This document shows, piece after piece, positions 8,068-58,594 of a DNA stretch of 64,000 nt. The stretch is taken from contig OZ024743.1 of assembly GCA_964016885.1 (NCBI GenBank), positions 188,480,001 through 188,544,000 of the forward strand. The letters run 5' to 3'. The stretch comes from Eledone cirrhosa (taxonomy: Eukaryota). Positions within the stretch are counted from its first letter, which is position 1. Every line of letters starts with the position of its first letter. The notes beneath the pieces were generated by a model. That model was not told the origin of the DNA. It was given only the letters and a program-made list of their open reading frames with translations, and ran no database searches. A program made the position numbers and the translations under genes.

Positions 8068-8255
8068 TATTTCCTTTACCGGTTTCACAGTTCTTATGCT
8101 TTTCAAAAGTAGAATTGAGATGGAGGGTTTGTGGTTTTTCTCCACAAACACTCCATCTCCATTCTACTTTTGAAAATCATAAGAACGGTGAAACCGGTAA
8201 AAGAAATAAATGAATATTCTTAAAAAGACTCCAGTTACATTTCTATGTCTTTTAT
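8068..8255. mobile_element. Small palindromic Penelope-like end (family P2)
   Basis: Inverted repeat 8070-8138 / 8143-8208, with a tail 'gactccagttacatttc' running into (TA)n. Confidence 0.65.
8074..8109 (-). ncRNA. Minimal type I hammerhead ribozyme, U3-A8 core variant
   Basis: Minus strand: ctt TTGAAAA gca-taagaac-tgt GAAA ccgg TA aag. Stem I ctt/aag, palindromic stem III. A more degenerate mirror copy lies at 8167-8203 (+). Confidence 0.5.
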
Positions 8256-8312
8256 ATATATATATATATATATATATATATATATATATATATATATATA
8301 TGTATATATATA

Positions 8313-8522
8313 TATAACGAAGGAAATGTGGTAAGGAACAAGATGGACCATAACGCACCAAAGTACTCAATACTTAGGGTAGTAGAGTGGGTAATAGGAA
8401 CGAATAGGACCCCGACGGCTGAGCTCACCCGTTTCGACGGCTAATTCTGGACTAAAATTTAGTCCAGAATTAGCCGTCGAAACGGCTTGAGCTCAGCCGT
8501 TGGGGTCCTACTCGTTCCTATA
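8313..8522 (-). mobile_element. Short fold-back copy of P1 pLTR 3' end in (TA)n
   Basis: Palindrome 8394-8522 centred on 'tctggactaaaatttagtccaga', with the P1 tail on the minus strand. Confidence 0.8.
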
Positions 8523-8598
8523 TATATATATATATATATGTGTGTGTATATATATAGATATATATATGTGTATGTGTGTGTATATATATATATATATA

Positions 8599-9160
8599 TT
8601 TCGTTTCTGAATTTGTTTAGCAAGATTCTTTATCTGAAAACGTGTGTTGAAACCGATATTGTTATACTTTGGGAGAGTCATGTTGCCAATAAGAAACACA
8701 CGCACCAGTTGTTTCACTTCAATTTATTATAATAAATTTATAAATTTAGGAATTTATAAATTTCCGGTTGGTTGGTTGGTTCCACAACCAGATGGTTGTT
8801 TATATATTGTCAAAGTTCTTTCGTCATACATTCTGTGACCTCTTCAGTGACTGGGGATTCTTTTCTTTGTTTTTGTGCCTCTCCTTTGTTCTGTCTTACG
8901 CCAGAAACAAGATGGCGTAAGACAGAACAAAGGAGAGGCACAAAAACAAAGAAAAGAATCCCCAGTCACTGAAGAGGTCACAGAATGTATGACGAAAGAA
9001 CTTTGACAATATATAAACAACCATCTGGTTGTGGAACCAACCAACCAACCGGAAATTTATAAATTCCTAAATTTATAAATTTATTATAATAAATTGAAGT
9101 GAAAGCAACTGGTGCGTGTGTTTCTTATTGGCAACATGACCCTCCCAAAGTATAACAATA
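8599..9160. mobile_element. Near-perfect ~250-bp-arm palindromic Penelope-like end (family P3) between (TA)n tracts
   Basis: Arms 8657-8902 / 8914-9160. The ORF track shows near-identical peptides on both strands. Confidence 0.85.
8965..9007 (+). ncRNA. Minimal hammerhead ribozyme-like motif (mirror at 8809-8851, minus)
   Basis: gtca CTGAAGA g-gtca-cagaatgta-tgac GAAA gaac TT tgac; stem I gtca/tgac. The cleavage triplet is non-optimal. Confidence 0.55.
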
Positions 9161-9197
9161 TATATATATATATATATATATATATATATATATATAT

Positions 9198-9535
9198 AAA
9201 TGGAAAAATGAAACGAAATTTCATTTCCCACTCTTAGTACGGCTGTTACTTAAATATAAGTACGTACACGTACATACATATATGTATACAGACGTACAGT
9301 AGTATGTATATATATATGTAAACTAGTACAGCGTTCCTTTGTCAGTGTTGAACAAACGAGCAACGATGGTTGCTAGACACTACGGCTTAATACAGGATGT
9401 TTGTTTACAAACACACCGAGCATTATAATAAATGTTCGGTGAGTACATATATATATATGTGTGCATGTATGTATATATATATACATACTACTGTACGTCT
9501 GTATACATATATGTATGTATGTGTACATACTTATA
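9198..9535. mobile_element. Penelope-like end family P4, inverted arrangement
   Basis: Same sequence as 27080-27640. The plus-strand part begins at 'aaactagtacagcg', inside the HHR seen intact at 27287-27327. Confidence 0.7.
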
Positions 9536-55762: not shown

Positions 55763-55784
55763 ATATATATATATATATATATAT

Positions 55785-56660
55785 GAAAATTAGAGTTAAA
55801 ACTCCAATCGGAACCCTGTAACTATTAAGCTCCAAGTATAAAATACTGAGCCGATTAATATATAGTAAGAAACACAGTAAACCGTGTGTCTAAAATTACA
55901 AGGGTTGAAAAACCACATTTGTTTGAAATATTTAACCAAGAAGCAGACAGAATGATAAAATAAAAATATATTATTATACAAACCGCCTCAATCACCATTA
56001 TCTCGGACAGATTATCCCTAATCTGTTTCGCCTTGAGTGTGTTTGTAACAGATAATCTTGGGCATCATCAGCGAGAGAATCTGATTAAATGCAACAAACA
56101 CTATTTGCCAACGTTCACACAGAAAGATGAAATTTGTCACCTCGTGCGCCGCTAGTCAAACGTGGTAAGCGCGTATTGAATAGAAATAACAGTCCCACAC
56201 ACACAACTTAATAAGCTCGACTTGTGAGGGAGCAGAAATATATATGAAAAACCACATTTGTTTGAAATATTTAACCAAGAAGCAAGTCGAGCTTATTAAG
56301 TTGTGTGTGTTGGACTGTTATTTCTATTCAATACGCGCTTACCACGTTTGACTAGCGGCGCACGAGGTGACAAATTTCATCTTTCTGTGTGAACGTTGGC
56401 AAATAGTGTTTGTTGCATTTAATCAGATTCTCTCGCTGATGATGCCCAAGATTATCTGTTACAAACACACTCAGGGCGAAACAGATTAGGGATAATATGT
56501 CCGAGAGATATAATGGTTATTGAGGCGGTTTGTATAATAATATATTTTTATTTTATCATTCTGTCTGCTTCTTGGTTAAATATTTCAAACAAATGTGGTT
56601 TTTCAACCCTTGTAATTTTAGACACACGGTTTACTGTGTTTCTTACTATTATTATCATAT
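55785..56660. mobile_element. Palindromic Penelope-like end (family P7), ~360-bp arms
   Basis: Arms about 55862-56224 / 56284-56650; the spacer holds a duplicate of 55907-55945. Confidence 0.85.
56427..56496 (+). ncRNA. Hammerhead ribozyme-like motif (mirror at about 56010-56080, minus)
   Basis: attctctcg CTGATGA t-gccc...gggc GAAA caga TT agggataat; stem III and the triplet are weak. Confidence 0.55.
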
Positions 56661-57267
56661 TTACACATATATTTTTTCCTCTGCTGCTACGCGTCTGTTT
56701 CGTTCTTTGTATCTTTACCCTTTCTAGCAGTCTCTCTCTCTGTTAGCCTTTTCCTCACACTTCACTCACTCATTCTCTGTCACTACCTCTCCTCCTCCTC
56801 TTTCTTCCCGTTTGACCTGTGTGTGATTCTTTTCTCTCGCACGCTGGCCAAGCTGGTATGAATTTTTTTTTTCTCTCTCGTCTACGATTTCACAGAACTT
56901 ATGTTTACCGAATTCGCAGACCAGACCCCTTCTTCCCTCCGTTAGACCTGTGCGAAATTCCTTCCTTGCTCACATTTCAACCAGGTTTGATGGTCTTTAT
57001 TCTCTCGTTCACGATTTCACCGAATTTAAATTCATAGAAATCTGGGACTTGTATCTTTCTTCATCACTTTCTGTTGCTTAAACCATTTTGTTTGTTTACC
57101 CTCGCGTCCCCTTTATTTATGTGTCCCAACGACTTTTTTTAGCCGTTGCTCGCACCAACCGGAGGTATATGGTCTTTAAAGCGATGAAATGCCTATGATG
57201 GTTGGAAGATCACTGATGAAGGACAAACTTTTTCATATATATATATATATATATATATATATATATA

Positions 57268-57399
57268 TAAAGAAAAAGAGATGAAATCGAAAATGCAACT
57301 GGAGTCTTATTTTTTTAGAAATATATATATTTATTTGTATATATTTTAAAAAAAATAAGACTCCAGTTGCATTTTCGATTTCATCTCTTTTTCTTTATA
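57268..57399. repeat. Perfect ~50-bp-arm inverted repeat next to (TA)n
   Basis: aagaaaaagagatgaaatcgaaaatgcaactggagtcttattttttt and its reverse complement; resembles the P2 tail at 8225. Confidence 0.8.
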
Positions 57400-57514
57400 C
57401 TTTCACTCGTGTAGGACACCTCGGTTATTTTTCATTTTGTAAAAAAAACCTCACTTTCTAATATATATATATATATATATATATATATATATATATATAT
57501 ATATATATATATAT

Positions 57515-58594
57515 TCCCCTAGTCTATGATAGATTTGGCGGACTCCGCCCTTTATAGCAGTTGGCTTAGACCCCGGATACTTGCCCCCTTTTTCCGACCG
57601 CTCCCACTATTCTCTGTGCCCTCTATATTTCTTAGTGGCATTTATGCCTTATTTTTTCGTTTCAGTATTTCTTGCTTCGCTTTTCTTCTGGGCGGGGTGG
57701 ATTCTGAATTTATTTCTCCGTATTCTACCTTTATTTCGTACGAACTTTCATGTAGCTTGTTTTAGATCTTTTAGAGTTAGCATTAGTATACATTTTTCTC
57801 GGGACTCAGAATTATTATCTCGTACAAGTTCACTTTGCTGCACTGGGTCGTTGCTGGCCCGGGATGGAAACATTTATTGTTTATTTCGTGGTAGTCTCTT
57901 TAGTATTTTGGCCCCTTTTGTTGACCCGTCACCGTATCATTTACGTACTTATACCTCTTAAAAGGGTCCTTGCCTATACCGTCCCACCTAGTTCTTTTAC
58001 TTATTTCGTTATTTCTTTATTTATTTATTTATTTACTTCTTTCTTTCTTTCTTTATTTTATTCTAGCCTAACAATAGCCTGAGACCTAGGTCGTAGAATT
58101 TAATTTACTTTACTTTTTTCTTTACACTTATTTGCTTTTCTTCACTCTCAGTATTTTTTTTTCTTTCCTATATATTTCTACCCCCCATTGTTCTACCTAC
58201 CGTTCCGACTTCCTCCCCCTCCCCCTCCCCTGTATCTTCTTTGACCTCATGCCCAGCTGTAGCTGGCACTACCAACGCTTGATTGGGTCTACTCCACCCC
58301 TCCCCTCTTTCTCCTACTGGCAGGTTTAGCCACCATCTCCCCTACTAATTTGCAACCACAGAATTACTACTGATTTTTGACAATCACTTTGACCATATAT
58401 GGAATTACCCCTTGAGAAGATCGGCTATTTAAATACCAGGATAAATTTTCATTTAGTCCAGAATTAGCCGTCGAAACGGCTTGAGCTCAGCTGTCGGGGT
58501 CTTACTGGTTCCTATTACCCACTCTACTACCTCAAGTACTGAGTACTTTGGTGCGTTATGGTCCACCTGGTTCCTTACCACATTTCCTTCGTTA
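57515..58594 (+). mobile_element. Long P1 Penelope-like 3' UTR/pLTR copy
   Basis: T-rich ~1.1-kb segment between (TA)n tracts, ending in the P1 tail and holding the only complete P1 ribozyme. Confidence 0.7.
58401..58513 (+). ncRNA. Extended type I hammerhead ribozyme with U3-A8 core
   Basis: ggaa-tt-acccc TTGAGAA ga-t-cggcta...tagccg-tc GAAA cggct-tgagctc-agctg TC ggggt-cttactgg-ttcc; predicted GUC cleavage after 58495. Confidence 0.75.

Follow-up and report, generated by a model that had tools for sequence, protein, structure and literature searches.

Head-to-head insertions of Penelope-like elements and retrozyme-like units at TA runs in Eledone cirrhosa

A 64,000-nucleotide stretch of the Eledone cirrhosa genome (GCA_964016885.1, contig OZ024743.1, positions 188,480,001 to 188,544,000; hereafter the window) contains eight families of insertions with hammerhead ribozyme (HHR) motifs. 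Judged by their sequences, six of these families are truncated ends of Penelope-like elements (PLEs) and two are retrozyme-like units, and we consider it probable that their palindromic copies are made at insertion, by priming at two sites. A sequence-only reading of the window had been right about the link to PLEs, the targeting of TA runs, the inverted ends, and the U3-A8 cores, but had described the insertions as non-coding palindromic cassettes. For six of the eight families, other copies are instead continuous with a PLE open reading frame (ORF), and the other two (E and G) consist of tandem single-HHR units that are not palindromic. Nor does the term "mini-elements" fit family C, whose copy in the window is 4.07 kb long and includes the ORF at 20056–21338, and the description of all copies as lying in or beside (TA)n fails for family F, which does not adjoin a long TA run.

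Insertions and hammerhead motifs in the window

The features, as assigned from sequence, are listed below, with strands where these apply and with HHR core positions; elements of different families abut one another.

8063–8242: family A, an old Neptune-type PLE, as a head-to-head pair of 3' ends; cores at 8106 (minus) and 8170 (plus), the right HHR decayed
8317–8521: family H short palindrome with a tail on the left arm only; no ribozyme, because both arms begin within the loop of HHR stem II
8600–9161: family B, a Neptune-type PLE, as a head-to-head pair of 3' ends with a 57-nt tail on the left arm only; cores at 8847 (minus) and 8969 (plus)
9204–9539: family E short inverted pair without an HHR core
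18986–23058: family C pair, two 5'-truncated Hydra-clade PLE copies head to head, the tail on the short right arm and none on the long left arm; cores at 19081 (minus) and 22890 (plus)
20056–21338, minus: C-terminal part of the family C ORF, with RT motifs plus a C-terminal GIY-YIG
21448–21708, plus: inverted second copy of the end of the C ORF, at the start of the right arm
26234–26682: family D, a second Hydra-clade PLE, as a head-to-head pair of 3' ends with an 86-nt tail on the right arm only; cores at 26326 (minus) and 26492 (plus)
27073–27640, minus: family E insertion of retrozyme-like kind, comprising roughly one non-coding unit of 424 nt and a short inverted arm that has no HHR; core at 27322 (minus)
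28629–28787, minus: family F, a Neptune-type PLE represented by its 3' end, whose HHR has stem II but lacks stem I; core at 28728 (minus)
54627–55759, plus: internally deleted family H Hydra element, in the order folded 5' pLTR piece, N-terminal part of the ORF (54726–55709, including RWR and DKT), 3' pLTR piece
55785–56655: family G retrozyme-like insertion, a 468-nt unit head to head, with a 75-nt tail on the left arm only; cores at 56071 (minus) and 56436 (plus)
57265–57452: palindrome of the extreme 3' end of family A, without an HHR, with one short end and one tail end
57515–58592, plus: solo 5'-truncated family H copy (3' UTR and pLTR) with a complete U3-A8 HHR (core at 58412, predicted cut after 58495) and a long TA run at its end

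All eight of the hammerhead families claimed earlier were located, about 20–40 nt or less from the positions first given. The comparison with shuffled sequence that had been suggested as a check came out in favor of the motifs: a strict type I descriptor matched the window 7 times, against a mean of 0.15 and a maximum of 1 in 60 dinucleotide-preserving shuffles. Point defects or weak stems keep A, F, G, and D's left arm outside the descriptor. A type I core with stems I–III and an NUH cleavage site is found in B, C, D, E, G (canonical, with a long stem III), and H; family A is weak, with stem II broken in its right arm, and stem I of F comprises only 1 bp, as it does at family level. U3-A8 cores occur in both arms of A and in H. 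Among 83 distinct D-like HHR sequences, which are mutually related so that these counts are not a formal test, A-U forms the second pair of stem II in 55 and G-C forms it in 21; conservation is 0.97 in core columns and 0.78 in unpaired non-core columns. An Rfam search of the window returned 136 matches at E<=5, none to a hammerhead family; those to the palindromes were of the MITE or microRNA-hairpin type only.

The window itself is not unusual: evenly spaced genome samples totaling 400 kb gave 5.4 HHR matches per 64 kb, close to its 7, and averaged 108 TA tracts per 64 kb, more than its 55. Shuffles of these samples permuted non-overlapping dinucleotides in 200-nt blocks and were cruder than those of the window. 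At about one motif per 12 kb in the samples, the genome-wide total may be about a quarter of a million, which, if true, would exceed the counts given in the parts of the retrozyme and PLE papers compared.

Coding parents and non-coding units

ORF-linked PLE parents, whose existence the sequence-only reading had proposed to check, were found for six families (A, B, C, D, F, and H). A family's own PLE ORF lies within 1.5 kb upstream in 16 of 30 loci for B (in sense orientation), 13 of 30 for C, 4 of 30 for D, and 3 of 30 for H, these being mostly the best matches to the window copies and the sets of 30 including a few insertions taken twice; at a fourth H locus the upstream ORF match looks like a neighbor. 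Pieces of the parent ORF of A lie about 1.2 kb upstream in loci L264, L271, L272, and L275.

By their motifs and sequence identity, we assign C, D, and H to the 3' ends of protein-coding Hydra-clade PLEs. Each has a canonical HHR in the pLTR and inserts into TA runs, and a single ORF with RT followed by a C-terminal GIY-YIG is seen in H (a 744-aa frame in the full element of locus L244), in C (the window and locus L250, whose ORFs are 98% identical), and, in broken form, in D. ORF-linked D copies occur in loci L241–L243, with the full element in L241 and the ORF in broken pieces in L241 and L243; the clade assignment of D is based on 30–49% identity to C. The window H ORF (54726–55709) is 88–90% identical to the N-terminus of the L244 frame. 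Read directly, the C ORF has a CxCx5C linker, no CCHH, and CxxC and CxH around conserved E and N; the H ORF has the same linker, no CCHH, and CxxC, together with DKT (replacing DKG) and RWR. Pfam has no family for the H frame or the window C frame; their homologues carry PF26215/PF28514.

Families A, B, and F are likewise assigned to the 3' ends of protein-coding PLEs of Neptune/Nematis type, those two not being told apart. A CX2-5CxxC linker and a CCHH-type C-terminal GIY-YIG were read in L248 for B (with a Pfam match to GIY-YIG at E 2e-4 that lies just under the cut-off), in L264 and L272 for A, and in L285 for F, where one linker cysteine is changed. The full B element, in locus L246, belongs to a family whose ORF has a DKS motif and a long Asn/Thr-rich N-terminal stretch. 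Family F has a long CA-rich 3' UTR, and its similarity extends towards about 29060.

The proteins had been called Naiad-type, a label that does not hold: GIY-YIG follows RT in C, H, B, and A, the motifs are those of Hydra elements, with DKT in H, and DKS in B, and HHRs are present. Naiad PLEs, as described in PMC8557442, do resemble the window elements in TA targeting and in inverted 5'-truncated copies, but their endonuclease is N-terminal, they have DKA, and they lack canonical HHRs, none of which applies here.

Families E and G are, by sequence, non-coding, retrozyme-like tandem units of 424 and 468 nt, respectively, with one HHR per unit. Head-to-tail unit junctions were found at 24 of 30 E loci and 22 of 30 G loci, several with arrays of two to three whole units. 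The longest Met-initiated frames are 60 aa (E) and 48 aa (G), and GC contents are 37.5% and 35.5%, below the 45% that bounds retrozymes. Neither unit has sequence similarity to the six PLE parents (best E values 0.07–0.24); both are nevertheless likely to be mobilized by PLE enzymes. The tail of G (75 nt) resembles those of the Hydra families (73–86 nt) and that of E (52 nt) those of the Neptune-type families (57–60 nt), a hint only.

Architecture and origin of the paired arms

The five head-to-head structures with outward HHRs described earlier (A, B, C, D, and G) are confirmed, and in them each arm does carry one outward HHR. Elsewhere this arrangement is in the minority: two-HHR insertions account for 4 of 32 in the evenly spaced 400 kb (13 pairs; hand count) and for 4 of 126 bystander insertions, and none of 24 bystander H pairs has an HHR. 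The shortest arms measure about 40 nt and the longest exceed 2 kb. Arm 5' ends are variable, and 2 of 480 lie no more than 3 nt from the HHR cut site; seven families have two fixed 3' ends 52–86 nt apart, those of F not being resolved. Piles of 5' ends at the edge of stem I in D and at -19 in H were discounted, both reflecting sister families with only the HHR region in common.

The two 3' ends are combined by rule, one short end and one tail end occurring in 87 of 94 classifiable pairs: 67 of 72 in A–D and H (91 examined, 19 unclassifiable) and 20 of 22 in E and G (27 examined), the exceptions numbering 5 and 2. Replicate, evenly spaced stretches gave 9 of 10 classifiable among 13 pairs, with one exception (hand count). 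Independent choice of ends predicts mixed pairs in at most half. Outside the evenly spaced stretches, the loci had mostly been picked for their close match to the window copies. The two arms of an insertion differ half as much as arms from different insertions, and rare variants are common to both about 5–13 times as often as in the control, where the control is non-zero. The junction gap is -6 to +3 in most pairs, few-base overlaps are common, and there is mostly no TA spacer. The 43 H pairs have about 38 different junctions, one of which was read with the tail on either side, and seven of the pairs form two recurring junction classes. Assembly artefacts are unlikely as a source of the palindromes, as the arms differ by 1–6% and have unlike ends.

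We think it probable that such pairs form as follows. Both strands of a TA run would be nicked, and each nick would prime reverse transcription from a different one of the two fixed start sites, with the element protein copying the same or a sister RNA twice; the two cDNA ends would then be joined head to head. In the short, near-symmetric copies, both cDNAs would stop in a family-specific zone, possibly the RNA 5' end. Uncleaved RNA is the likely template. The HHR probably acts for the parent or for the retrozyme multimer, in processing or circle formation, and not for the palindrome. From the ORF-bearing parents, end pairing, arm kinship, and TA junctions, all of them observed, we infer the protein action and cDNA joining. 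Arm similarity could also reflect later conversion between arms, and the recurring H junction classes leave room for some short palindromes to be copied as units. As for a stricter form, in which twin priming would be obligately asymmetric, each subunit of a dimer would occupy one start site, and retrozyme RNAs would take the same route, we regard the odds as even. A PLE protein is reported to cut and extend both strands and is a predicted dimer (PMC11167929); the same work found no start-site difference between the two strands in vitro, which counts against one-site-per-strand priming.

A rival reading keeps the identity of the elements but has a single cDNA or antisense RNA fold back and prime itself to give the inverted arm, a route put forward for rotifer PLEs in PMC3846280. 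The rare variants common to both arms, the few-base overlaps, and the near-symmetric pairs (within 15 nt in 35 of 43 for H, 8 of 14 for A, and 8 of 22 for B) would suit such a route. A fold-back copy is limited to the content of the first strand, however, so the longer arm must bear the tail, yet in 26 of the 46 asymmetric pairs (17 of 26 in A–D and H, 9 of 20 in E and G) it is missing from that arm, as it is in the window C element, which is outside the 46. These pairs contradict fold-back unless a second event supplies the tail, and we consider it unlikely as the general route.

It is far less likely that the mobile unit is a palindromic two-ribozyme cassette moved in trans. Five such structures in the window, the two recurring H junction classes, and the non-coding nature of E and G speak for it; for the families as a whole it is refuted by the continuity of six of them with ORFs, the scarcity of two-HHR pairs, the range of arm lengths, and the single HHR of E and G units. 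In full A, B, D, and G palindromes, moreover, the predicted pairing of HHR stems I and II falls to 0.000. The earlier expectation that read-through would meet a sense ribozyme is thus correct as to its presence in the RNA, but modeling suggests that it is likely buried in the hairpin and silent. Two independent, opposite insertions into one TA run are just as improbable: TA runs are hot spots where different families abut, but most junctions lack a TA spacer, arms of a pair have rare variants in common, and the one-of-each end rule requires coordination.

Relation to known elements and significance

These are new families of known PLE clades and of retrozymes, and the consensus lists in the supplement of PMC8557442 may hold related families. 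The Hydra-clade PLEs described there resemble C, D, and H collectively in the C-terminal GIY-YIG without CCHH, CxCx5C linker, CxxC/CxH, DKT, RW[K/R], canonical HHR, and TA targeting. They differ in having RWK where H has RWR, tails of 30–40 bp rather than 73–86 nt, and lengths under 3 kb, as against about 3.7 kb for H owing to the 3' UTR of about 1.1–1.3 kb found here; the Hydra type, of small family number outside cnidarians, is very abundant in this genome. Neptune/Nematis-type elements (PMC8557442) resemble A, B, and F in a Cx4CxxC-type linker and a GIY-YIG that has two cysteines within it and histidines further on, and the minimal HHR, in which an extra base precedes stem II, is as in PMC4209133, which also notes dual HHRs 100–700 bp apart on opposite strands; F differs in its lost stem I and B in its Asn/Thr-rich stretch. 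As low-GC, non-coding tandem units that each carry a single type I HHR, E and G resemble the metazoan non-LTR retrozymes of PMC7229834 and bioRxiv 10.64898/2026.07.22.740005, G slightly exceeding the 150–450 bp range reported. What E and G add is a direct signature of insertion, namely head-to-head pairs and two start sites of PLE type, which is absent from the main text of the bioRxiv paper, where the word "tail" does not occur.

Inverted pLTR insertions with head-to-head arms, a one-armed tail, two tail-bounding start sites, and an uncleaved RNA template appear in PMC3846280 and PMC11167929, and the origin of inverted, one-tailed PLE insertions is stated to be open in PMC8557442 and PMC11167929. 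Added here are the counted one-of-each ends and the independence of the tail from arm length, which argues against self-priming; literature searches found no earlier statement of either. Palindromes of this kind can be mistaken for MITEs or microRNA hairpins. For the in vitro system already in use, the pair-end rule and the arm-length test make a sharp prediction; that E and G show this end signature too connects retrozymes with PLE enzymes through mechanism, not through likeness of sequence. If asymmetric twin priming is correct, each one-tailed palindrome would be its direct fossil, and retrozymes made in the same reaction would provide mechanistic proof that they are passengers of PLEs.

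Ribozyme motifs in the window and across the genome

All eight hammerhead ribozyme (HHR) families proposed in the sequence-only reading were located in the window:

Family A, HHR at 8074/8167
Family B, HHR at 8809/8965
Family C, HHR at 19014/22880
Family D, HHR at 26274/26484
Family E, HHR at 27287
Family F, HHR at 28698
Family G, HHR at 56010/56427
Family H, HHR at 58401

A type I hammerhead descriptor identified 7 motifs in the window, against a mean of 0.15 over 60 shuffles. On stem-by-stem inspection six families (B, C, D, E, G, H) have well-formed HHRs, with a long stem III in G and H; the right-arm HHR of family A is decayed, and that of family F has no stem I. 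Families A and H have a U3-A8 core, which is known in schistosome Penelope-like elements (PLEs) from PMC4209133. Among 83 D-like sequences, stem II shows two-sided change (A-U in 55, G-C in 21), and changes in stem I preserve wobble pairing. A solitary HHR 5' half-core, outside all eight families as defined, is found at 57213-57230 (+), with a TA run about 15 nt further on and the GAAA half absent.

Every family is a high-copy repeat in this 3.0-Gb genome, with first-look candidates ranging from at least 306 to at least 2217 per family. In 40 evenly spaced 10-kb stretches (L302-L341), the descriptor found 34 motifs, one of which looks doubtful, versus 0 in five shuffles. Because this density is about 1 per 12 kb, the motifs of the window are ordinary for the genome, which, provided that the sampled stretches are typical, would hold roughly 250,000. 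The eight families make up about 4.5% of bases in these stretches, and 16 of the 40 contain matches to Hydra or Neptune-type ORFs. Across 1.17 Mb of fetched loci, 323 motifs form about 40 sequence clusters. HHR families absent from the window also occur (one, the L255 type, with 23 matches), as does a related group in L144, L176, L199, and L282, whose core pair varies, being U3-A8 in some members and C3-G8 in another.

Other repeats were also noted. Broken LINE copies with RVT_1 and a PHD-like Cys cluster, which we take to be RTE-like, occur at 51900-54312 (+), 29452-30543 (+), and 59158-59400, and L248 holds an open 786-aa copy. Family C copies in L251 and L252 adjoin long open frames (2-2152 and 7364-8398, respectively) that belong to other types of non-LTR RT. 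Two related 48-nt tandem repeats, at 15866-16217 and 34400-34592, are in opposite orientation.

Protein-coding parents and retrozyme-like units

A sense PLE ORF within 1.5 kb upstream of the HHR region was found in 16, 13, 4, and 3-4 of 30 loci of families B, C, D, and H, respectively. L244 carries a complete family H element (PLE terminal repeat [pLTR], 744-aa frame, pLTR, inverted pLTR), and elements with an inverted arm were found for families D (L241) and B (L246). In families A and F the 3' UTR is longer, and beyond it lie the remains of an ORF end in which a Cx4CxxC-type linker and a CCHH-type GIY-YIG are recognizable. An absence of ORF-linked parents had been set as a test of the earlier proposal, and the opposite was found: six families have PLE parents and are therefore the ends of those parents, not separate cassettes as had been claimed.

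Within the window, the frame at 20056-21338 lies inside the family C palindrome; that at 54726-55709 represents the N-terminus of a family H element with an internal deletion and is 88-90% identical to L244. Both had been attributed to Naiad-type RT/GIY-YIG proteins; their motifs fail that assignment and agree point by point with the Hydra clade as described in PMC8557442. The family B ORF (L246, 5291-5900; L247, 2864-3862) has a long Asn/Thr/His-rich N-terminal stretch that recalls the inserts rich in Asn described for rotifer PLEs in PMC3846280. Outside the range of these findings are decayed family H ends at 3273-3410 and 4958-5104, the latter a palindrome with no HHR; a second family F copy, 27671-28356 (-), lacks the HHR segment.

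Families E and G never reached an ORF of their own in 30 loci each. A unit is preceded 5' by the end of another in 24/30 loci for E and 22/30 for G, and several loci hold two or three complete units in an array. The units (E, 424 nt; G, 468 nt) are non-coding, with GC of 35-38% and one HHR apiece, and by sequence appear to fit the non-LTR retrozymes described in PMC7229834 and bioRxiv 10.64898/2026.07.22.740005. Two patches recur in the tails (3' stretches between the two fixed 3' ends) of C, D, G, and H: a short self-complementary one, GAG..CTC/CTT, and a TTCCAA-like one about 25 nt from the end; these are candidates for a protein-binding signal and hint that G may use Hydra enzymes.

Structure and origin of the palindromes

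The five head-to-head structures described earlier are present in the window. Palindromes are a minority of insertions: among 126 bystander insertions of A-D, F, and H, 41 are paired and 4 carry two HHRs, and a hand count in the sampled stretches gave 13 and 4 of 32. Family H pairs mostly begin within the HHR and so contain none. Junctions vary between copies, and the predicted pairing of HHR stems in the full hairpin is 0.000 for the four that were folded (A, B, D, and G; the C structure spans 4 kb).

Copies terminate at TA runs and do so at one of two fixed positions, with 52-86 nt between them in seven families (all but F), matching the tail that PMC11167929 traces to two reverse-transcription start sites. 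Among classifiable pairs, those with one short (tail-less) and one tail end make up 67 of 72 in families A-D and H (19 unclassifiable pairs set aside), 20 of 22 in E and G (5 set aside), and 9 of 10 in an independent sample. The tail is absent from the longer arm in 26 of 46 asymmetric pairs. The 5' ends of arms rarely fall at the HHR cut site (2/480), which agrees with a template of uncleaved RNA, and short copies end in family-specific zones that possibly mark the 5' end of the RNA.

The simplest account of the pairs is two priming events followed by joining of cDNA ends. Each target strand would be primed once, each from a different one of the two start sites, both events copying the same RNA or a sister RNA, and the ends of the two cDNAs would then be joined. 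PMC11167929, in which both strands are extended and the protein is predicted to be a dimer, agrees with this account, although the start site reported there shows no strand difference. Fold-back copying of one strand, the reading of inverted arms in PMC3846280, requires the longer arm to contain all of the shorter, and hence cannot yield the 26 pairs with a tail-less longer arm. That a pair is two unrelated insertions is unlikely, because rare variants are common to both arms and most junctions have no TA spacer. We regard twin priming as the probable mechanism.

The literature already describes HHRs in pLTRs, U3-A8 cores, and dual HHRs on opposite strands, as well as retrozymes, TA targeting, inverted arms, and one-sided tails. 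For the one-of-each count, the arm-length test, and the tail signature on retrozymes, we found no statement in the mainly open-access literature searched, which took in main-text passages of PMC8557442 and the preprint. The families themselves are real and are almost certainly PLE ends and retrozymes.
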